From a virus (lineage: Duplodnaviria > Heunggongvirae > Uroviricota > Caudoviricetes): 55,074 nt of DNA. Positions 25,816 through 45,723 of this stretch are shown piece after piece. The number at the start of each line of letters is the position of its first letter. Position 1 is the stretch's first letter. Location: the IMG/VR virus record IMGVR_UViG_2880361019_000008, one strand, 5' to 3'. The notes under the pieces are model-generated. The model had not been told where the DNA came from and made no database searches. It worked only from the letters and a program-made list of their open reading frames with translations. The position numbers were made by a program, and so were the translations under genes.

Positions 25816-27180
25816 ATGTGGAACTTTTTGCGACGAACCCGAAAAAACCAGAAATCAGGACGTGATGTAAAAGAGGTGGGCTGGACCAGCCTGTTTCAGG
25901 CGGTGGCTGAGCCCTTTGCCGGCGCCTGGCAGCAGGGTGTGAAAGCCGATCCGGAAAGTGTCCTCTCCTTTCATGCGGTGTTTTCTTGCATTTCGCTGAT
26001 ATCCCAGGATATCGCCAAAATGCGGCTGCGCCTGATGCAGACGGATACACAGGGGATCCGCCGTGAAAAACGGCAGGGGGATATTGCCCGCCTCTGTCGT
26101 CGTCCCAATGCACAGCAGAATCGTATCCAGTTTTTTGAACTGTGGCTGAACGCCAAACTGCGTCACGGCAATACGGTGGTGCTGAAAATCCGTAACTCCC
26201 GGGGGCAGATCAAAGAACTGCGTATTCTGGACTGGAGCCGGGTTGAACCTCTGGTGGCGGATGACGGCGAGGTGTTCTATCGCATCACGCCGGACCGGAA
26301 CTGCGGGATCACGGAGGCGGTGACGGTGCCTGCCCGGGAAGTGATCCACGACCGGTTTAACTGTTTTTTTCATCCGCTTGTGGGGCTGCCGCCGGTGTAT
26401 GCCGCCGGGCTGGCGGCCACGCAGGGGCATCATATTCAGGAAAATTCGACGTCTTTTTTCAGAAATGGCGGCAGGCCGTCCGGGGTGATTGAGATCCCCG
26501 GCAGTATTACGGAAGAAAAGGCGAAAAAACTGAAGAGCAACTGGGACAGCGGGTATACCGGCGAAAATGCGGGGAAAACGGCCATTCTGAGCAACGGGGC
26601 AAAATACAACCCCACGACGTTTTCACCGGTGGATGCGCAGACGGTGGAACAACTGAAGATGACCGCTGAAATTGTCTGTTCGGTGTTCCGTGTCCCGGCC
26701 TACAAGATTGGCGTTGGCCAGCCACCTTCCAGTGACAACGTGGAGGCGCTGGAGCAGCAGTATTATTCCCAGTGCCTGCAGACGCTGATTGAGTCCATTG
26801 AACTGTTACTGGATGAGGCGCTGGAAACGGGGGAAAACGAGAGTACGGAGTTTGACGTCACCACGCTGCTGAGAATGGACAGCGAACGGCGCATGAAAAC
26901 GCTGGGTGAGTCGGTGAAAAATACGCTTCTCACGCCCAATGAGGCCCGTAAACGTGAGAACCTGCCGCCCCTGGCCGGCGGTGATGCACTGTATCTTCAG
27001 CAGCAGAACTACAGTCTGGAGGCGCTGTCCCGTCGTGATGCCCGTGAAGATCCGTTTGCGTCGTCCGGGAAAAGAGTTTCAGCCCAACTGCCTGACGGCG
27101 CATCTGACGGTAATAAGGCAATCAGTGAAACAGAGCATGGTGCGGTGAAAGCGATGTTGAGGGGGATACTGCGAAAATGA
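25816..27180 (+). CDS. Portal protein (HK97 family)
   Basis: 454-aa ORF in head module; called by size and context. Confidence 0.7.
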   Translation: MWNFLRRTRKNQKSGRDVKEVGWTSLFQAVAEPFAGAWQQGVKADPESVLSFHAVFSCISLISQDIAKMRLRLMQTDTQGIRREKRQGDIARLCRRPNAQQNRIQFFELWLNAKLRHGNTVVLKIRNSRGQIKELRILDWSRVEPLVADDGEVFYRITPDRNCGITEAVTVPAREVIHDRFNCFFHPLVGLPPVYAAGLAATQGHHIQENSTSFFRNGGRPSGVIEIPGSITEEKAKKLKSNWDSGYTGENAGKTAILSNGAKYNPTTFSPVDAQTVEQLKMTAEIVCSVFRVPAYKIGVGQPPSSDNVEALEQQYYSQCLQTLIESIELLLDEALETGENESTEFDVTTLLRMDSERRMKTLGESVKNTLLTPNEARKRENLPPLAGGDALYLQQQNYSLEALSRRDAREDPFASSGKRVSAQLPDGASDGNKAISETEHGAVKAMLRGILRK

Positions 27181-28400
27181 CGGAACGGGAACTGTCCATT
27201 ATTCGTGCACTGGGAGAAGAATTCGCCACGGTGCTGGCGGATTTACAGCGCACATTTGAGGAGAAGATGGCCGCGCAGGCACAAGCGTTTGAAGAGAAAC
27301 TGGCTTCCCTGTCGGCGGTATTACAGAAGCATGTGACGGTGGATGAGGTACATCCGGTTCTGCAGGCGATGGTGGATGACGCTGTGGGGACCATTCCGGT
27401 ACCGCGTGATGGTCGTGATTATGATCCGGATGTACTGCAGCAGGCGGTGAATGATGCGGTTGCGAATATTCCGGTACCGGCGGACGGCAAAAGTATCACC
27501 CCCGATGATGTGCGTCCGATGCTTGAGCAGATGGTGAAAGAGGCCGTAAGCCATATCCCTGTTCCCCGCGATGGTCGTGATTACGATCCGGAAGTACTGA
27601 AGCAGGTGGTGAATGATGCTGTCGGGAGCATTCCTGTACCAGCAGACGGCAAAAGTATCACCCCCGATGATGTGCGTCCGATGCTTGAGCAGATGGTGAA
27701 AGAGGCGGTAAGCCATATTCCTGTTCCGCGTGATGGTCGTGACTACGATCCGGAAGTACTGAAGCAGGCGGTGAATGATGCGGTCGCGAAAATACCGGTG
27801 CCGGCAGACGGTAAAAGTATCACCCCGGATGATGTGCGTCCGATGCTTGAGCAGATGGTGAAGGAGGCGGTAAGCCATATTCCTGTTCCGAGCGACGGTC
27901 GTGACTATGATCCCGATGTTCTGCAGAAGGCGGTTCTGGATGCGGTGAGTGCCCTGCCGGCTCCGCAGGACGGGCGTGATGCTACGGCACTGGAAATACT
28001 CCCCGCCATTGACGATCAAAAATCCTTTCCCCGGGGCACGTATGCCACACACCAGGGCGGACTCTGGCGGGCGTATGAAAAAACGCACGGGATGCGGGGA
28101 TGGGAATGTCTGGTTGACGGGGTGGCGGATATTGACGTCAGCATGACGGGTGAACGGTTGTTCTCTGTGGTGGTCCGGCAGAGCAGTGGCCAGCGTACGG
28201 AAAAAACATTTTCCCTGCCGGTGATGCTCTACCGCGGTGTGTTCAGAGCCGGTGAAACCTACCACCCAGGCGATACAGTGACATGGGGGGGCTCGCTGTG
28301 GCACTGCAACAGTATGACCGGTGATAAACCCGGAGAAGCTCATTCATCAGCCTGGACCCTGGCTGCAAAACGTGGACGGGATGCTGGAGGCGGAAAATGA
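27177..28400 (+). CDS. Virion-associated protein with 47-aa tandem repeats (possible head decoration or fibre protein)
   Basis: Repeat unit IPVPRDGRDYDPEVLKQAVNDAV..IPVPADGKSITPDDVRPMLEQMVKEAVSH, about 3.5 copies. Confidence 0.55.
   Translation: MTERELSIIRALGEEFATVLADLQRTFEEKMAAQAQAFEEKLASLSAVLQKHVTVDEVHPVLQAMVDDAVGTIPVPRDGRDYDPDVLQQAVNDAVANIPVPADGKSITPDDVRPMLEQMVKEAVSHIPVPRDGRDYDPEVLKQVVNDAVGSIPVPADGKSITPDDVRPMLEQMVKEAVSHIPVPRDGRDYDPEVLKQAVNDAVAKIPVPADGKSITPDDVRPMLEQMVKEAVSHIPVPSDGRDYDPDVLQKAVLDAVSALPAPQDGRDATALEILPAIDDQKSFPRGTYATHQGGLWRAYEKTHGMRGWECLVDGVADIDVSMTGERLFSVVVRQSSGQRTEKTFSLPVMLYRGVFRAGETYHPGDTVTWGGSLWHCNSMTGDKPGEAHSSAWTLAAKRGRDAGGGK
27390..27960. repeat. Tandem 141-bp coding repeats (about 3.5 copies)
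   Basis: Near-identical DNA blocks visible between 27400 and 27900. Confidence 0.7.
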
Positions 28401-34962: not shown

Positions 34963-35660
34963 TGCAGAATATTCATGAAGAAAGCCTGAACGAGTCGGTT
35001 AAATCAGAACAGTCACCGCGGGTGGTGCTCTGGGAAATTGACCTGACGGTGCAGGGCGGTGAGCGCTATTTTTTCTGCAATGAACTGAATGAAAAAGGGG
35101 AGCCGGTCACCTGGCAGGGGCGTGAATATCAGGCGTACCCGATTGACGGCAGCGGCTTTGAGATGAACGGGAAGGGCAGCAGTGCCAGACCGTCGCTGAC
35201 GGTGTCCAATCTGTTTGGCCTTGTCACCGGAATGGCGGAGGACCTGCAGAGCCTGGTGGGGGCCACGGTGGTCCGCCGCCGGGTGTATGCCCGTTTTCTG
35301 GATGCGGTGAATTTTGTGGCGGGCAATCCGGAAGCGGACCCGGAGCAGGAGCTGAGTGACCGCTGGGTGGTGGAGCAGATGTCGCAGCTGACAGCCATGA
35401 CGGCCTCGTTTGTGCTGGCCACACCGACGGAGACGGACGGAGCGCTGTTTCCCGGTCGCATCATGCTGGCGAACACCTGTATGTGGGATTACCGGGGAGA
35501 TGAATGCGGGTATAACGGTCCTGCGGTGGCGGATGAGTTCGACAACCCCACCACGGATATCCGTAAGGACAGATGCAGCAAGTGCATGCGCGGGTGTGAG
35601 ATGCGCGGCATGGTGGCTAATTTTGGCGGTTTCCTTTCCATTAATAAACTTTCGCAGTAA
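34962..35660 (+). CDS. L: Minor tail protein L
   Basis: 232-aa ORF with C-terminal Cys cluster (CSKCMRGCEMRG). Confidence 0.85.
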   Translation: MQNIHEESLNESVKSEQSPRVVLWEIDLTVQGGERYFFCNELNEKGEPVTWQGREYQAYPIDGSGFEMNGKGSSARPSLTVSNLFGLVTGMAEDLQSLVGATVVRRRVYARFLDAVNFVAGNPEADPEQELSDRWVVEQMSQLTAMTASFVLATPTETDGALFPGRIMLANTCMWDYRGDECGYNGPAVADEFDNPTTDIRKDRCSKCMRGCEMRGMVANFGGFLSINKLSQ

Positions 35661-35670
35661 ATCCCGGTTT

Positions 35671-35988
35671 ATGACACAGACTGAATCAGCGATTCTGGCG
35701 CATGCCCGGCGGTGTGCGCCTGCGGAGTCTTGCGGCTTCGTGATAAGCACGCCGGAGGGTGACCGAACGAAGGCTGGTACCAGATACGTATTGCTGGTGA
35801 GGACACGGCACCGGAGGCGGTGTATGCCCGCCTTCACGAACAACTGGGTGAGGGAACGGTCATCCATATTGTGCCGCGACTGGCCGGTGCAGGGAAAGGC
35901 GGACTGCAGATTGTGCTGGGGGCGGCAGCCATCGTGGGCTCTTTCTTCACGGCCGGAGCATCGATGGCAGCCTGGGGTGCAGCGCTGA
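35671..35988 (+). pseudogene. K: Tail assembly protein K remnant: first about 30 codons of K fused out of frame to gene I sequence
   Basis: MTQTESAILAHARRCAPAESCGFVISTPEG matches remembered lambda K N-terminus, then an Arg-rich out-of-frame tail. Confidence 0.65.
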
Positions 35989-36281
35989 GTGCCGGCGGTT
36001 TTTCTGCCACCACGATGCTGTTTTCACTGGGTGCCAGCATGATACTGGGTGGTGTGGCACAGATGCTGGCCCCGAAGCCAAAAACACCGGAATACAGGGC
36101 AACGGATAACGGTAAACAGAACACGTACTTTTCGTCGCTGGATAACATGATTGCCCAGGGGAACCCGATGCCGGTGCCTTACGGTGAAATGCTGGTTGGC
36201 TCCCGGCGAATCTCCCAGGACATCAGCACCCGTGATGAAGGCGGGGGCGGAAAGGTCGTGGTTATCGGGCGGCAGGGGTAA
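35763..36281 (+). pseudogene. I: Tail assembly protein I, 5'-truncated by the K-I deletion
   Basis: Frame reads EGWYQIRIAG...HIVPRLAGAGKGGLQIVLGAAAIVGSFFTAG.., matching the middle and C-terminus of remembered lambda I; frame closed upstream by TGA at 35760. Confidence 0.65.
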
Positions 36282-36296
36282 AAAGAATAAAAAAAT

Positions 36297-36320
36297 CCCG
36301 CAGTGTTGCGGAACTGCGGG
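36297..36320 (-). terminator. Minus-strand intrinsic terminator downstream of sodC
   Basis: Hairpin CCCGCAGT-N8-ACTGCGGG with T-run on minus strand. Confidence 0.5.
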
Positions 36321-36438
36321 AGCGTTACGAAGATTGAGTGTAAGGAATTATTCTTATGTCACGACAAAAACATTAACTCAGAGAGGGAGGATGTGCCGTT
36401 CTTTTCAGGGAGAAAGGATTTATCGTCCTGAGGAATAA

Positions 36439-36462
36439 AGGTAAGGGGCCCGCCCCTTACCT
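36439..36462. terminator. Strong hairpin (possible bidirectional terminator) between I and sodC
   Basis: 10-bp stem AGGTAAGGGG/CCCCTTACCT with 4-nt loop, 7 nt from sodC stop. Confidence 0.45.
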
Positions 36463-36468
36463 GACTGA

Positions 36469-36996
36469 TTATTGAATGATGCCGCAGGCCATTCTCGCAC
36501 CACCACCGCCCAGGGGCTCCGGATGGTCATGATGGTTATCACCGCCAGCATGAAGCATGAGAGAACGCCCTTTAATCTCTTTTAATGAGTTCAGTCTCGG
36601 GGCCAGGACCGGGTAGTTCGCTTTTCCGTCATGCGTCACGAACAGCGCAGGGAGGTCGCCCAGGTGTCCATCCGGAGACCAGGGGCCAAGATGTTTGCCG
36701 GTGTTTTTCGGGTCAAAGTGACCGCCAGCCGATAATGCTGCGACCGGTTTTCCGTCTTTCAGTGCCGGGGCGCAATTTCCTTTTTCGTGCACATGAAAAC
36801 CATGAATGCCTTCAGACAGAGAGTGAAGGGCTGGTGTGAACAGCAGACCGTAGGGGGTCTCCTGAATGGTTATTTTTCCAATGCTGACTTCTTTTCCGTC
36901 AGCACTGACAAGGTTCATTGGGACTTCCTGTTCTGCTGCGTATCCGCATGATGCTGCTGTCAGCATGGCAATGGCAGCAATGATTTTACATTTCAT
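36469..36996 (-). CDS. sodC: Periplasmic Cu/Zn superoxide dismutase (prophage moron)
   Basis: 175-aa frame with signal peptide [21 protein letters not shown] and motifs [21 protein letters not shown]; opposite strand to tail genes. Confidence 0.9.
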
Positions 36997-39662
36997 AAAA
37001 CCCTCATTAATTCCGTTAACAGACTGAGCTTGCTGGTTACAGGGTAACAAACAGCGTTCTGATGATATCGCGCAATAGCTGTGCAATATCCTATCACTGC
37101 GATTAATAATACCAATTGAGAGGAACATTATGGGTAAAGGTGGCGGCAGGGCACACACGCCGGTTGAGGCAAAGGACAATCTTAAGTCCACGCAGCAGAT
37201 GATGAGCGTGATTGATGCCATTGGTGAAGGGCCGATTGAAGGTCCGGTGAAGGGGCTGCAGAGTATCCTGGTGAACAAAACCCCGCTGACGGACACGGAC
37301 GGTAATCCTGTGATACATGGTGTGACCGCGGTCTGGCGCGCCGGGGAGCAGGAGCAGACACCACCTGAAGGCTTTGAGTCCTCCGGGGCGGAAACCGCAC
37401 TGGGCGTGGAAGTGACGAAAGCAAAGCCGGTGACACGCACCATTACGTCCGCGAACATTGACCGCCTGCGGGTCACCTTCGGGGTGCAGTCACTGTTGGA
37501 GACCACCTCAAAGGGCGACCGTAATCCCTCTTCTGTCCGGCTGCTGATTCAGTTGCAGCGTAACGGTAACTGGGTGACGGAAAAGGATGTCACCATTAAC
37601 GGCAAGACCACCTCACAGTACCTGGCGTCGGTGATTCTGGATAATCTGCCTGAGCGGCCCTTTAACATCCGGATGGTCCGGGAGACAGCGGACAGCACCT
37701 CGGACCAGCTGCAGAATAAGACGCTCTGGTCGTCATACACCGAAATCATCGATGTGAAACAGTGCTACCCGAACACGGCGATTGTGGGGCTGCAGGTGGA
37801 TGCGGAGCAGTTTGGCGGTCAGCAGATGACGGTGAACTACCATATCCGAGGTCGCATCATCCAGGTGCCGTCAAACTATGACCCGGAAAAACGCACTTAC
37901 AGCGGCATCTGGGACGGCAGTCTGAAACCGGCATACAGCAACAACCCGGCCTGGTGCCTGTGGGACATGCTGACTCACCCGCGCTATGGCATGGGAAAAC
38001 GTCTGGGGGCGGCGGATGTGGACAAATGGGCGCTGTATGCCATTGCGCAGTACTGCGACCAGACGGTCCCGGATGGTTTCGGGGGCACAGAGCCGCGGAT
38101 GACCTTTAATGCGTACCTGTCACAACAGCGTAAGGCGTGGGACGTTCTCAGTGATTTCTGCTCGGCGATGCGCTGTATGCCGGTATGGAACGGCCAGACG
38201 CTGACGTTCGTTCAGGACCGCCCGTCGGATGTGGTGTGGCCGTACACCAACTGCGATGTGGTGGTGGATGATAACGGCGTGGGGTTTCGCTACAGCTTCA
38301 GCGCCCTGAAGGACCGCCACACGGCGGTGGAGGTGAATTACACCGACCCGCAGAACGGCTGGCAGACCTCCACGGAACTGGTGGAAGACCCGGAAGCCAT
38401 ACTGCGCTACGGGCGCAACCTGCTGAAGATGGATGCGTTCGGTTGCACCAGTCGCGGTCAGGCCCACCGTGCCGGGCTGTGGGTGATAAAGACCGGACTG
38501 CTGGAAACGCAGACGGTGGATTTCACGCTCGGGTCACAGGGGCTGCGTCACACACCCGGTGACATTATTGAAATCTGTGATAACGACTATGCCGGGACCA
38601 TGACCGGCGGACGTATCCTGTCCATCGATGCCGCCAGCCGCACCCTGACACTGGACCGTGAGGTGACCCTGCCGGAGACAGGTGCCACCACGGTGAACCT
38701 GATTAACGGCAGCGGTAAGCCGGTGAGCGTGGCCATCACTGCACACCCCGCGCCGGACCGGATACAGGTCAGCACCCTGCCTGATGGTGTGGAGACATAC
38801 GGTGTATGGGGACTCTCCCTGCCGTCACTGCGTCGTCGCCTGTTCCGCTGTGTCTCCATCCGGGAAAACACGGACGGCACCTTTGCCATCACGGCGGTGC
38901 AGCACGTACCGGAAAAAGAAGCCATCGTGGATAACGGGGCCAGCTTTGAGCCGCAGTCAGGCACCCTGAACAGCGTTATTCCACCGGCAGTGCAGCACCT
39001 GACGGTGGAGGTGAGCGCGGCTGACGGTCAGTATCTGGCACAGGCGAAATGGGACACGCCGCGGGTGGTGAAGGGTGTGCGCTTCAGTCTGCGCCTGACC
39101 AGCGGAAGCGGAGAAGACAGCCGTCTGGTGACCACCGCCATCACTGCGGATACAGAGCATCGTTTCGGTGGTCTGCCGCTCGGGGAATACACCCTGACAG
39201 TCAGGGCAATTAACAGTTATGGCCAGCAGGGCGAACCGGCCACCACCACCTTCCGGATTAACGCGCCAGCAAAACCCGCCACCATTGAACTGACGCCGGG
39301 GTATTTTCAGATAACGGCGGTACCGGTGCTGGCGGTGTATGACCCGACGGTGCAGTTTGAGTTCTGGTTTTCGGAAAAACGCATCACGAACACGGCACAG
39401 GTGGAAAAATCTGCCCGTTATCTGGGGAGCGGCAGTCAGTGGACTGTCCAGGGAAGCCGGATTAAGCCGGGGACGGATTTCTGGTTTTACGTGCGCAGCG
39501 TCAACCTGGTGGGGAAATCTGCGTTTGTGGAAGTCAGCGGGCAGCCCAGCAATGATGGTGAAGGGTATCTGGAATTTTTCCGGAAAAAAATAGGAAAACT
39601 GCATCTGGCTCAGGGGTGTGGGAACTGATAGATAACAGCCAGCTTGCAGATGAGATGGCGGA

Positions 39663-39667
39663 GATGA
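39663..39667. repeat. Target-site duplication GATGA (left copy) of the IS21-family insertion
   Basis: Same pentamer at 44711-44715; removing the IS and one copy restores ...[17 protein letters not shown]... Confidence 0.6.
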
Positions 39668-39860
39668 TGCGTATTTTCATGAAAGGAGATCACTCAATAA
39701 CTTCCATCGAGATCGGGTAATAACATTTGAACAGATCGCTGAATAACATCGATGGAGATCACTTTTGACTCATTTTGTTATTCAGTGATCTCCATCAATG
39801 TTATTGGAACTTCACAGGTGTGTTGATCTGTATCTTTTGCCATTCCGGTAAAGGATACCT

Positions 39861-40716
39861 ATGCCAACAGTTCCAATTTCTATGAGAAAACTTAAAGAAA
39901 TTCTTAGGCTTAAATACGGTGTTGGACTCAGCCATCGACAAATTGGTCGTAGTCTTGCAATCTCCCCTTCCGTTGTATCCAGATATGCTAATCGGGCGGC
40001 TCAACTTGGCATAAAGCAGTGGCCCTTACCTACAGGATGGGATGATACAAAACTAAAACATGCGTTCCTTCAGACCCAGGTTAAGATGAAGAAGCACTCT
40101 CTGCCTGACTGGGCTACAGTACACCGGGAACTGCGTAATAAATGCGTGACGCTGCAGCTACTCTGGGAAGAATACTGTGAGCGTAATCCAGGCGGTTTTT
40201 ACAGCTATAACCATTACTGCCGGATGTACCGTGAATGGCTCAAAACCACTTCACCATCAATGCGTCAGGTACATAAAGCTGGCGAAAAACTTTTCGTTGA
40301 TTACTGTGGACCTACCGTTGGCGTTACCGACCCTGAGACCGGAGAAATAAGAACTGCTCAGGTCATCGTAGCTGTTCTCGGGGCATCAAGTTACACATGG
40401 GCAGAGGCCACCTGGTCTCAGCAGCTTGAAGACTGGGTGATGAGTCATGTTCGCTGCTTCCAGTGGTTGGGTGGCGTTCCTGAACTTGTTGTTCCGGACA
40501 ATCTGAAAAGCGCCACATCCAGGGCATGTAAGTATGATCCTGACGTTAACCCTACCTACCAGCAGATGCTTGAGCATTATAATGTCGCAGTTTTGCCTGC
40601 GCGGCCACGTAAACCGAAAGATAAAGCCAAAGCTGAAGTTGGCGTTCAGGTTGTTGAACGCTGGATCATGGCCCGAATCAGGCATGAGATCTTCTACAGC
40701 CTTGCATCGCTTAATC
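39861..40716 (+). pseudogene. istA: IS21-family transposase IstA, N-terminal fragment (interrupted by IS66-family element)
   Basis: 302-aa ORF with HTH and integrase-core motifs; reading frame continues at 43171. Confidence 0.8.
40709..40716. repeat. Target-site duplication GCTTAATC (left copy) of the IS66-family insertion
   Basis: Identical 8-mer at 43171-43178 flanking GTAAGCG...CGCTTAC ends. Confidence 0.7.
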
Positions 40717-40797
40717 GTAAGCGTCGTCTCAGCACCGTCTGGCAGATCCTGAAATTCCTGAGAGAATAGTGGACACCAAATATGGTGGACGCTATCC

Positions 40798-41202
40798 ATG
40801 AAATCATTAACCGCAGTGCGTAAAAAAAGCCCTAATTATCCCGTTGAGTTCAAAATCAAAATGGTTGAACTCTCGCATCGACCAGAGATCTCCGTAGCGC
40901 AACTCGCTCGTGAGCATGGGATCAACGATAATTTGCTGTTCAAGTGGCGCCAGTACTGGCGCGAAGGAAAACTACGTCCTCCTTCAACAACAGAAAACAA
41001 CGTGCCTGAGCTGCTCCCGATAACACTTGATGCCGAAGATGTTGTCCCTACAACCTCCCCCCGGTCACAACCTGTAGCTGCTGCGACACCTGAATCACTC
41101 AATATCAGCTGTGAAGTGACGTTCCGGCACGGATCACTCCGTCTGAATGGTGCCATCAGCGAAAATATCCTGAACCTGCTGATACGGGAGCTCAAACGTT
41201 GA
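40798..41202 (+). CDS. IS66-family accessory protein (orf1/TnpA)
   Basis: 134-aa ORF, first of three IS66 ORFs. Confidence 0.85.
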   Translation: MKSLTAVRKKSPNYPVEFKIKMVELSHRPEISVAQLAREHGINDNLLFKWRQYWREGKLRPPSTTENNVPELLPITLDAEDVVPTTSPRSQPVAAATPESLNISCEVTFRHGSLRLNGAISENILNLLIRELKR

Positions 41203-41546
41203 TCCCATTACCATCAGGGACAAAGATCTGGCTGGTCGCTGGCATCACCGATATGAGAAACGGCTTCAACGGCCTGGCGGCAAAGGTGCAGACGACGCTG
41301 AAAGACGATCCGATGTCAGGTCACGTTTTTATCTTCCGTGGGCGTAATGGCAGTCAGGTAAAGCTCCTCTGGTCTACCGGCGATGGACTGTGTCTGCTGA
41401 CCAAACGGCTGGAGCGCGGCCGCTTCGCCTGGCCGTCAGCCCGGGATGGCAAAGTGTTCCTCACACCGGCACAGCTGGCGATGCTGCTGGAAGGTATCGA
41501 CTGGCGGCAGCCTAAAAGACTGCTTACGTCCCTGACTATGTTGTAA
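41199..41546 (+). CDS. IS66-family accessory protein (orf2/TnpB)
   Basis: 115-aa ORF overlapping orf1 stop. Confidence 0.85.
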   Translation: MIPLPSGTKIWLVAGITDMRNGFNGLAAKVQTTLKDDPMSGHVFIFRGRNGSQVKLLWSTGDGLCLLTKRLERGRFAWPSARDGKVFLTPAQLAMLLEGIDWRQPKRLLTSLTML

Positions 41547-41594
41547 GCCTCTTTATCCTGGTCGACGCTGAATGAGCCTGGTAATATACCCGGT

Positions 41595-43133
41595 ATGAGC
41601 AGCTCACTTCCTGACGATATCAATGCACTGAAACGTCTCCTTGCCGAACAGGAGGCGCTGAACCGTGCCCTGCAGGAAAAGCTGAACGAGCGTGAACGCG
41701 AAATAGACCATCTGCAGGCACAGCTGGATAAGCTGCGCCGGATGAACTTCGGCAGCCGCTCGGAAAAAGTCTCCCGTCGTATCGCACAGATGGAAGCTGA
41801 CCTGAAGGCACTTCAGAAAGAAAGTGATACCCTTACCGGTCGGGTTGACGACCCGGCCGTGCAGCGCCCGCTGCGTCAAACCCGCACCCGCAAACCGTTC
41901 CCCGAATCACTCCCCCGCGATGAAAAACGGCTGCTGCCGGCAGCGTCATGCTGCCCGGAATGTGGAGGCTCGCTGAGCTATCTGGGTGAGGATGCCGCCG
42001 AACAGCTGGAGCTGATGCGCAGCGCCTTCCGGGTTATCCGGACTGTACGTGAAAAGCATGCCTGTACTCAGTGCGATGCCATCGTGCAGGCCCCCGCGCC
42101 TTCACGGCCCATCGAGCGGGGTATCGCAGGACCGGGGCTGCTGGCCCGCGTGCTGATCTCAAAGTATGCAGAGCACACCCCGCTGTACCGCCAGTCTGAA
42201 ATGTACGGCCGCCAGGGCGTGGAGCTGAGTCGTTCACTGCTGTCGGGCTGGGTGGATGCATGCTGCCGGCTACTGTCACCGCTGGAAGAAGCGCTTCAGG
42301 ACTATGTGCTGACTGACGGTAAGCTCCATGCTGATGACACGCCTGTCCCGGTGCTGTTGCCAGGCAATAAGAAAACGAAGACCGGGCGGTTATGGACCTA
42401 CGTTCGTGACGACCGTAACGCCGGGTCAACGCTGGCGCCGGCGGTGTGGTTCGCTTACAGCCCGGACAGAAAAGGCATCCATCCGCAGACCCATCTTGCG
42501 GGGTTCAGTGGTGTACTGCAGGCGGATGCATACGCCGGGTTCAACGAGCTGTACCGGGATGGCCGGATAACGGAAGCCGCCTGTTGGGCTCACGCCCGCC
42601 GTAAAATCCACGATGTGCACGTTCGCACCCCGTCAGCCCTGACGGAGGAAGCGCTGAAACGGATCGGCGAACTGTACGCCATCGAGGCAGAGATAAGGGG
42701 AATGACGGCGGAGCAGCGCCTTGCCGAACGTCAGTTGAAAACGAAACCGCTGCTGAAATCCCTGGAAAGCTGGCTGCGTGAAAAGATGAAAACCCTGTCG
42801 CGACACTCAGAACTGGCGAAAGCGTTCGCATACGCCCTGAACCAGTGGCCGGCGCTGACGTACTATGCAGATGATGGCTGGGCTGAGGCGGACAATAACA
42901 TCGCTGAAAATGCGTTGCGGATGGTCAGTCTGGGCCGCAAAAACTACCTGTTCTTCGGTTCGGATCATGGAGGAGAGCGGGGAGCGCTGCTGTACAGCCT
43001 GATCGGGACGTGCAAACTGAACGGAGTGGAGCCAGAAAGCTACCTCCGCTATGTCCTTGACGTCATAGCCGACTGGCCGATAAACCGGGTCGGCGAACTG
43101 CTCCCCTGGCGCGTAGCACTGCCGACTGAATAA
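41595..43133 (+). CDS. IS66-family transposase (orf3)
   Basis: 512-aa ORF with N-terminal coiled coil and zinc-ribbon CPECGG. Confidence 0.9.
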
Positions 43134-43170
43134 CACATCCCCGTCAATACGGTTCTTGCTGCACGCTTAC

Positions 43171-43864
43171 GCTTAATCAGCGCATTCGGGAGTTGCTGGA
43201 AAGACTGAATAACAAAATAATGCAGAAGTTGGGTTATTCACGTGCAGAACTCTTCATCCAGCTTGATAAACCCGCACTGAAGCCTCTTCCTGAAGCCAGT
43301 TACAGTTACACCCTGGTGAAGAAAGTCAGAGTTCATGCCGATTACCACGTGGAAATCGACAAACATTACTACTCGGTTCCATGTTCGCTGTTAGGCCAGC
43401 AACTGGAAGCATGGATCTCCGGAGAACTGGTAAGACTCTTCAATCAGGGGCAGGAGGTTGCTGTGCACCCGCGCAAGCGTACTTATGGCTACAGTACCCG
43501 CAACGAGCACATGCCTGAAGCTCATCGACAGCATGCCACCTGGACGCCAGAGCGTCTTCTGGAATGGGCGGGGCACATAGGCAGTGAAACTCATAGTTAT
43601 GTGCTTCATATACTGAACTCTCGTCCACATCCGGAACAAAGCTATCGCTTCTGCCTTGGACTCCTGAACCTTCATAAAAAATACAGTAAAGCCAGACTTA
43701 ATGCAGCATGTGCAAGAGCTCTGAAAACAAAGGTATGGCGTCTGTCAGGTATTAAATCGATCCTGGAAAAAGGTCTGGATAAACAACCTGTTCAGGATCC
43801 AAAACCAGATCTGTTATCCACGATGGAACACGAAAACGTACGCGGCAGTGAGTATTACCACTGA
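43171..43864 (+). pseudogene. istA: IS21-family transposase IstA, C-terminal fragment
   Basis: Frame continuous with N-fragment once the IS66 element and one duplication copy are removed. Confidence 0.75.
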
Positions 43865-43875
43865 TACGGGATCCA

Positions 43876-44625
43876 ATGATGAATCATCTTTACGAACAAC
43901 TGACCGCACTTAAACTCACCGGCTTCCGTGATGCGCTTAAAAAGCAACTTGCTCAGCCGGGCACATACCAGGAGCTGGGCTTCGAAGAACGCCTGTCATT
44001 ACTGACAGCAGAAGAACTAACCTGCCGTGAAAACAGGAAGGCAGAGCGTCTGATCAAACATGCACGGTTCAGACTTAATGCTGAGTTATCAAAGCTGGAT
44101 TATCGTAACAATAGAGGGCTGGACAGGGCCCTCATCCGTTCACTCAGTCAGGGAAACTGGTTAACCCTGAAACAAAATATTTTACTGACCGGGGCCACCG
44201 GCAGCGGTAAAACGTTCCTGGCATGTGCACTTGGTCATAATGCCTGCCGACAGGGATACAAGGTCTACTATTATCGCCTTAAAGCGCTGATGGAACAGTG
44301 CTATCAGGGGCATGCTGATGGAAGATACAGCAAACTTTTGACCAGGCTGAATAATAGCGATCTGCTGCTTCTGGATGACTGGGGGCTGGAACCTCTCTCA
44401 TCAGAACAGCGTAGCGACCTGCTGGAAATAGTGGATCTGATGTACCAACGAGGCTCAATCATCGTAGTGAGCCAGTTGCCGGTGGAAAACTGGTACAAAA
44501 TGATCGGAGACTCCACACATGCGGATGCCATCCTAGATCGACTGGTTCATGGCAGTATCAAGATCGAACTTAAAGGAGAATCAATGCGGAAAATACAATC
44601 TCCGTTGACCGAAGGAGATCAGTGA
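43876..44625 (+). CDS. istB: IS21-family ATP-binding helper protein IstB
   Basis: 249-aa ORF with Walker A GATGSGKT and Walker B LLLLDDWG. Confidence 0.9.
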   Translation: MMNHLYEQLTALKLTGFRDALKKQLAQPGTYQELGFEERLSLLTAEELTCRENRKAERLIKHARFRLNAELSKLDYRNNRGLDRALIRSLSQGNWLTLKQNILLTGATGSGKTFLACALGHNACRQGYKVYYYRLKALMEQCYQGHADGRYSKLLTRLNNSDLLLLDDWGLEPLSSEQRSDLLEIVDLMYQRGSIIVVSQLPVENWYKMIGDSTHADAILDRLVHGSIKIELKGESMRKIQSPLTEGDQ

Positions 44626-44710
44626 AGGTAATTTAAAAACGGTTCTGTGAAAGTGACACGAACCGATCTCCATCGATGTTACTCACCGATCTCCTTCACG
44701 GTAATACGCA

Positions 44711-44715
44711 GATGA
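44711..44715. repeat. Target-site duplication GATGA (right copy) of the IS21-family insertion
   Basis: See left copy at 39663-39667. Confidence 0.6.
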
Positions 44716-45723
44716 AGACCAGCATCACGGAAACCCGCAATGAAATCACACAGACGGTCAGTAAAACACTGGAGAACCAGAGCGCCACCATACAGCAGAT
44801 ACAGCGCGTGCAGAAGGACACAAATGATGACCTGGCTGCGCTGTACATGCTGAAGGTTCAAAAAACGAAAGACGGCATTCCCTATGTGGCCGGGATTGGT
44901 GCAGGGATTGAGGATACTGATGGTCAGCCACTGAGCAACATACTGCTGCTGGCTGACCGTATCGCGATGATAAATCCGGAGAGCAGCAACAGCACGCCGT
45001 TATTTGTGGCGCAGGGGAATCAGCTGTTCATGAACGACGTGTTCCTGAAACGACTGTTTGCGGTGAGCATCACGTCATCCGGCAATCCTCCGGCATTTTC
45101 CCTGACGCCGGACGGGCGACTGACGGCGAAAAATGCGGATATCAGTGGCAGTGTGAATGCGAACTCAGGGACGCTCAACAACGTCACGATTAATGAGAAC
45201 TGTCAGATTAAGGGGAAACTGTCAGCCAACCAGATTGAAGGCGATATAGTCAAAACAGTGGGTAAGGCTTTTCCGCGGGACTCCCGGGCACCGGAGCGGT
45301 GGCCATCAGGGACCATTACCGTCAGGGTTTATGACGATCAGCCGTTTGACCGGCAGATTGTTATTCCGGCGGTGGCATTCAGTGGCGCTAAGCATGAGAG
45401 AGAGAGCATACTGATATTTACTCCTCATGCCGTCTGATAGTGCGGAAAAACGGTGCTGAAATTTATAACCGTACCGCGCTGGATAATACGCTGATTTACA
45501 GTGGCGTTATTGATATGCCTGCCGGTTCACGGTCACATGACGCTGGAGTTTTCGGTATCAGCATGGCTGGTGAATAACTGGTATCCCACAGCAAGTATCA
45601 GCGATTTGCTGGTTGTGGTGATGAAGAAAGCCACCGCAGGCATCAGTATCAGCTGAATTTTATAACCCATATACGGGCGCCAGAAATGGCGCCTTTTTTA
45701 TTGCAGAAAAGCGAGAGGTAATT

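Follow-up and report, generated by a model that had tools for sequence, protein, structure and literature searches.

A single-base deletion in the tail-tip gene J of a defective Escherichia albertii prophage, separable from a nearby IS insertion

Was the tail-tip gene J of this prophage frameshifted independently of the insertion sequence that interrupts it, and if so, which base was lost? The question was addressed in a window of 55,074 nucleotides (the whole stretch of DNA analysed; all positions refer to it), in which the nested IS21/IS66 insertion begins only 51 nt downstream of the frameshift. The window was placed in CP034212.1 by exact-protein look-up. A table in PMC10673567 gives CP034212.1 as the chromosome of Escherichia albertii 2010C-3449, isolated from a human in 2010. 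The window was collinear with the ssrA-integrated nleL/espN/espK prophage of E. coli O26 RM8426, with 96–98% identity.

The 5′ part of J and the site at which its frame breaks comprised three features.

37130–39628, plus strand: 5′ fragment of J, a lambda-type tail-tip/host-specificity gene (ORF list, NCBIfam profile, nucleotide identity).
39613–39617, plus strand: frameshift site, GGGG followed by a single T, with one base missing between 39616 and 39617 (alignments, exact-match counts, the related contig L023).
39617–39667, plus strand: 17 J codons in the shifted frame, ending at the IS insertion point (translation, alignment with intact J protein).

The 5′ ORF encoded 832 amino acids and ended at a premature TGA at 39626–39628, its final four codons (CGN plus the stop context) being out of frame. 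Residues 1–828 matched positions 1–828 of the 1163 in the NCBIfam profile NF049904 (lambda_TipJ) with 1785 bits, and the J piece behind the IS re-entered the profile at position 847. Since the match ended at residue 828 and restarted at 847, the break lay directly after ..LAQG. The 18 profile positions between the two fragments were the codons now in the shifted frame. The preliminary description of this DNA had read the 5′ ORF as ending at this TGA with J coding going on in the −1 frame, and sequence and translations confirmed it.

The 5′ fragment showed 96–98% nucleotide identity with the intact J of O157:H7 and O26. The profile cut-off of 1950 bits was reached by neither J fragment (1785 and 383 bits) because the gene is broken; the homology itself was unambiguous. 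J of this type is a single ORF of about 1130–1160 codons, and the present J was broken after codon 828. Synteny with annotated prophages of O157, O26 and other E. coli placed it in a lambdoid tail module, with the tail assembly gene I before it and lom after it. Exact-protein look-up of the 832-aa and 253-aa J fragments returned the source genome only. Between I and J the prophage carried a cargo gene for a Cu/Zn superoxide dismutase, sodC (36469–36996, minus strand, 175 aa, Pfam Sod_Cu). In E. coli F2_81 (L003), sodC was placed in the same way.

The window J was compared with 13 intact J genes by DNA alignment and was exactly 1 base short between 39616 and 39617, at the end of a G4 run that inspection of the sequence placed at 39613–39616. 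All the intact homologues were exactly one base longer at this point, so that the alignment check suggested in the preliminary description bore out its claim that J is frameshifted just upstream of the IS. At the frameshift site the intact genes carried GGGG-T-TG, GGGG-C-TG/TA or GGGG-G-TG, which read in codons as CAG GGG TTG TGG, CAG GGG CTG/CTA TGG or CAG GGG GTG TGG. The lost base was the first base of codon 829, which encodes Leu (TTG, CTG or CTA) or Val (GTG).

The deficit was also seen beyond these 13 genes. The best 60 E. coli matches to 38600–39667 were each 1 nt longer, or 4 nt longer with an extra in-frame difference of 3 nt. The closest E. coli relatives of 39200–39667 measured 469 nt, against 468 in the window. 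Exact matches were searched in a set of 5,426 complete E. coli genomes. The 62-mer with the deletion had no exact match at 2,714 homologous places (675 records, 671 complete E. coli genomes), whereas the repaired 63-mer matched 123 records with T added and 74 records with G added. The deficit was therefore not due to chance. Exact-pattern scans of the GTDB representative genomes and the JGI metagenomes found neither a 38-mer across the frameshift nor a 40-mer across the J::IS junction. The window J thus carried an indel relative to its intact orthologues that is not conserved among them, as in a mutational frameshifted pseudogene.

A run of four G could in principle be a programmed or phase-variable slippage site, at which tRNA-Gly would shift by −1 on G GGG and give ..QGVWEL. 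Read on the sequence, such a slip would keep perfect pairing on GGGG and restore the frame. However, only 17 codons of the restored frame would precede the IS, two further frameshifts and a deletion in K–I (described below) would leave any J product useless, and the classical X XXY YYZ heptamer is absent. The shifted arrangement was conserved in no homologue (0 of the 2,714 places), and programmed frameshifting at G4 was ruled out by this lack of conservation; the chance that this explanation is right is negligible.

A second homopolymer lies a short distance upstream.

39584–39590, plus strand: A7 run produced by a G→A substitution at 39584 (Glu→Lys), without an indel (13 intact homologues, L023).

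A slip in this run had been put forward as the poorer alternative, and it was indeed the poorer one. The 13 intact homologues all carried GGGAAAAAA or divergent sequence at the A7 site. The change from GGGAAAAAA to GGAAAAAAA in the window is the G→A at 39584, and the run lengths otherwise agreed. A slip in A7 was ruled out because the homologues differ by this substitution without a change in length. Among IMG/VR sequences, the 42-mer spanning A7 occurred in L023 alone.

Attention then turned to which base had been lost. The preliminary description had proposed the loss of 1 nt in the G run. A true deficit of 1 nt at G4 was established, but G as the lost base was poorly supported and the Leu/T state was favoured. 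The first base of codon 829 was T in 8, C in 3 and G in 2 of the 13 sampled intact homologues. Both of the nearest local haplotypes (468 nt) carried T, namely O157:H7 7.1_Anguil (1 mismatch) and strain 4276 (4 mismatches). J of the syntenic O26 prophage had TTG at the site. Lambda J has Leu at the aligned position, and the lambda J sequence quoted in the preliminary description proved correct. With T in the nearest haplotypes, TTG in O26 and Leu in lambda, loss of a T is more parsimonious than a slip among the G. The lost base was probably one T (GGGG-TT-G to GGGG-T-G), and the ancestral protein would then have read ..AQGLWELIDN.

A real deletion of G would have started from a Val allele, GGGGG-TG, by replication slippage from G5 to G4. 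Homopolymer slippage rises steeply with run length, and a G5 to G4 slip is mechanistically likelier per site than TT to T. The G5 allele with identical flanking 31-mers was present in 74 E. coli records and also in L003 and L011, and adding a G restores the J reading frame. However, the two sampled G alleles were locally far from the window, with 19 and 37 mismatches over the 468 nt, against 1 and 4 for the T alleles. T or Leu was also the majority state, besides being the state of the O26 prophage and lambda. No intact allele carrying the linked A at 39584 was found. Loss of a G is accordingly the unlikelier course, with a real but minor chance. If the deletion is genuine, loss of T would be clearly favoured over loss of G.

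The insertion downstream consisted of two elements, one within the other.

39668–44710, plus strand: IS21-family element (istA, istB) with ~2.58 kb of its own sequence (NCBIfam, junctions, inverted repeats).
40717–43170, plus strand: IS66-family element (tnpA, tnpB and transposase, all open), nested in istA (NCBIfam, junctions).

Assignment to the IS21 family called for istA and istB genes encoding a DDE transposase and an AAA+ helper, for terminal inverted repeats with TG as their first bases, and for a short duplication of the target. The outer element matched the NCBIfam profiles transpos_IS21 and IS21_help_AAA with 269 and 270 bits, both above the cut-off. Its inverted ends were TGCGTATTTTCATGAAAGGAGATC and GATCTCCTTCACGGTAATACGCA (TGCGTA.../...TACGCA), and it was flanked by a 5-bp target duplication, GATGA, at 39663–39667 and 44711–44715. 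For the IS66 family, the criteria were the genes tnpA, tnpB and tnpC, ends of the form GTAAGCG... and duplication of 8 bp of target. The inner element matched NCBIfam IS66 TnpA, TnpB and transpos_IS66, had the ends GTAAGCGT and ACGCTTAC, and was flanked by the 8-bp duplication GCTTAATC at 40709–40716 and 43171–43178. After removal of the IS66 element and one copy of its target duplication, istA was an open frame of 513 aa.

The relation between the frameshift and this insertion was shown by L023, which is IMGVR_UViG_2880361019_000005 and carries a J remnant on its reverse strand at 3540–5140. The IMG/VR scan found the frameshift 38-mer in this contig. L023 differed from the window over 39132–39667 by 1 mismatch and no gap in 536 nt, and both the −1 deletion and the A at 39584 were common to the two. 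Across the IS target site L023 was unbroken, with no IS and no difference for ~209 nt. It had neither the (GA)5 nor the extra T found further downstream in the window J, and its 3′ part was open as far as the natural stop. Its 5′ end was cut by an IS1 at the equivalent of window position 39132.

L023 is thus a frameshifted allele without the IS, which shows that frameshift and insertion can be separated. This separability was observed directly, as were the deletion and its position. The preliminary description had taken the frameshift in J to be independent of the IS, a view upheld by L023, with the deletion and the G→A and no IS at the target site. The frameshift is probably also older than the insertion, as the IS-free allele suggests. 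L023 may represent another J copy of the same assembly, and its weight as independent confirmation would then be smaller. The J::IS junction and the −1 deletion were each absent from the 5,426 complete E. coli genomes; the absence of the junction is explained by the source being E. albertii.

Further damage was found in J behind the insertion and in the tail genes upstream.

44716–45656, plus strand: 3′ fragment of J with the natural TGA at 45654–45656 (lambda_TipJ profile positions 847–1075, 383 bits).
45396–45405, plus strand: (GA)5 where intact genes have (GA)4, a +2 frameshift (alignment, sequence; also in L024).
45526–45527, plus strand: TT where intact genes have T, a +1 insertion (alignment).
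35759–35765, plus strand: junction of a ~716-bp deletion in the tail genes K and I (~716-bp jump in the collinear alignments with L001, L002 and L006).

The 3′ fragment was 99% identical in nucleotides to the 3′ ends of E. coli J. The (GA)5 frameshift led to the stops TGA TAG at 45435–45440. It was present in the IMG/VR contig L024, from IMG taxon 2721755651, as in the window, but L024 lacked the extra T. The +1 T combined with the +2 returns the last 43 codons to the J frame. This extra T was seen nowhere else, and neither it nor the J::IS junction had a match in the IMG/VR scans. J was repaired by adding one base, removing the IS with one copy of its target duplication, removing GA and removing T. 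Reverting these four lesions gave an ORF of 1158 aa, the length of an intact J.

The ~716-bp deletion took away K downstream of about codon 30 together with the initial ~22 codons of I, and fused K codon ~30 to I codon ~23. A look-up with the I remnant turned up an identical junction in the independent draft contig L018 (JBIDQJ010000103.1, GCA_043679955.1), which was 100% identical to window 35258–37574 over 2.3 kb and ended 445 nt into J, before the frameshift site. The earlier account of the damage to J had rightly included the −1 frameshift and the IS; it had missed the two 3′ frameshifts and the K–I deletion.

An assembly consensus error was considered as another source of the missing base, in which case J would not be frameshifted at this point in the living strain. 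Most errors left in PacBio assemblies are 1-nt indels in short runs, and the exact 832-aa product is recorded for one genome only. The record belongs to the 'PacBio Genome Sequences of Eight E. albertii Strains', given as reference 33 in PMC10673567. However, L023, a second locus whose flanks differ, combines the same deletion with the same rare substitution, and the (GA)5 lesion is likewise common to another contig (L024). Typical residual PacBio errors would need a longer context than G4 or TT. Compared with the O26 prophage over ~24 kb, every coding indel fell in J, the others being intergenic or the O26 prophage's own K frameshift. No frameshift was present in 8.6 kb of tail genes, in lom, stf, nleL or espN, or in 5 kb of multi-copy IS sequence. 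Since the other coding sequence compared was free of frameshifts, the assembly was not generally error-ridden, and a consensus error is very improbable.

The small intergenic indels relative to the O26 prophage were at 45672, 45693, 46326, 50795, 31342 and 31368. The J–lom terminator region contained two of them, and another fell within a run of T separating nleL from espN; all lay outside coding sequence.

The missing base is very probably a genuine spontaneous 1-nt deletion in an unselected J, one among several lesions of a prophage that is defective but has been kept for the effectors it carries. On this reading, a single base, most probably T, would have been lost from the first position of Leu codon 829. 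The reading frame would shift, and translation would be expected to stop four codons later. J would have been frameshifted while still free of the IS, and insertion of the IS21-family element would have followed in this lineage. With four inactivating lesions (−1, nested IS21/IS66, +2 and +1), J is a decaying pseudogene, and the frameshift itself is without function. Single-base loss of this sort is a familiar event, and here it reflects ordinary pseudogene decay.

One feature of the lesions is not predicted by simple, uniform decay. The three small indels were all in J; the tail genes next to it, which should be under no more selection than J, had none. Other J remnants carried two of these indels as well. 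The window J consisted of a 5′ tract with the −1 deletion, common to L023, and a 3′ tract with (GA)5, common to L024. The confinement of the indels to J and their sharing with other remnants hint at recombinational exchange of dead J segments. The pattern could reflect gene conversion spreading such segments, or selection against J expression in effector-carrying prophages. That the J lesions are alleles exchanged by recombination among J remnants of different prophages or strains is rather improbable, though the shared tracts would fit it. Spontaneous deletion and decay remain the preferred explanation.

The type III effector cargo at 48183–55074 was intact and comprised nleL (782 aa), espN (1133 aa) and the start of espK. 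This cargo was 99.9% identical to that of the O26:H11 ssrA prophage, though the host is E. albertii. Two ORFs of 454 and 407 aa were present at 25816–28400, with an ATGA overlap at 27177–27180. The PGAP annotation of O26 RM8426 treats this pair as a single frameshifted 'phage portal protein'; the pair may be either a real frameshift or two genuine genes.

The correct annotation of J in this E. albertii prophage is a pseudogene with four lesions, and the finding has little importance beyond that. The prophage is best regarded as a fixed and non-inducible element carrying NleL, EspN and EspK, not as a tail-building phage. The shared J lesions provide a small marker for recombination or descent of prophage remnants among E. 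albertii and E. coli strains.

The gene order L, K, I, J, lom, stf around the window J is the same as that around the homologue of lambda gpJ, the central tail fibre and tail-tip host-specificity protein, in the lambdoid prophages of O157:H7 and O26. The repaired window J of 1158 aa was 94–96% identical to J of O157/O26 and 67% identical to lambda J. Unlike lambda gpJ, the window J is a pseudogene (−1 frameshift, IS, +2, +1) and cannot encode a tail tip. The O26 ssrA prophage is also decaying, with its K and portal genes annotated as frameshifted. The −1, IS21/IS66 and +1 lesions in J and the K–I deletion of the window occurred in none of the 5,426 complete E. coli genomes. The insertion sequences have the IstA/IstB and TnpA/TnpB/TnpC sets, terminal inverted repeats and 5-bp and 8-bp target duplications of the known IS21 and IS66 families. 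They differ from these in being nested, with the IS66 element inside istA, so that the IS21 copy has lost its own transposase. The closest known counterparts of the prophage as a whole are the defective, IS-riddled lambdoid prophages with type III effector cargo in EHEC/EPEC and E. albertii.
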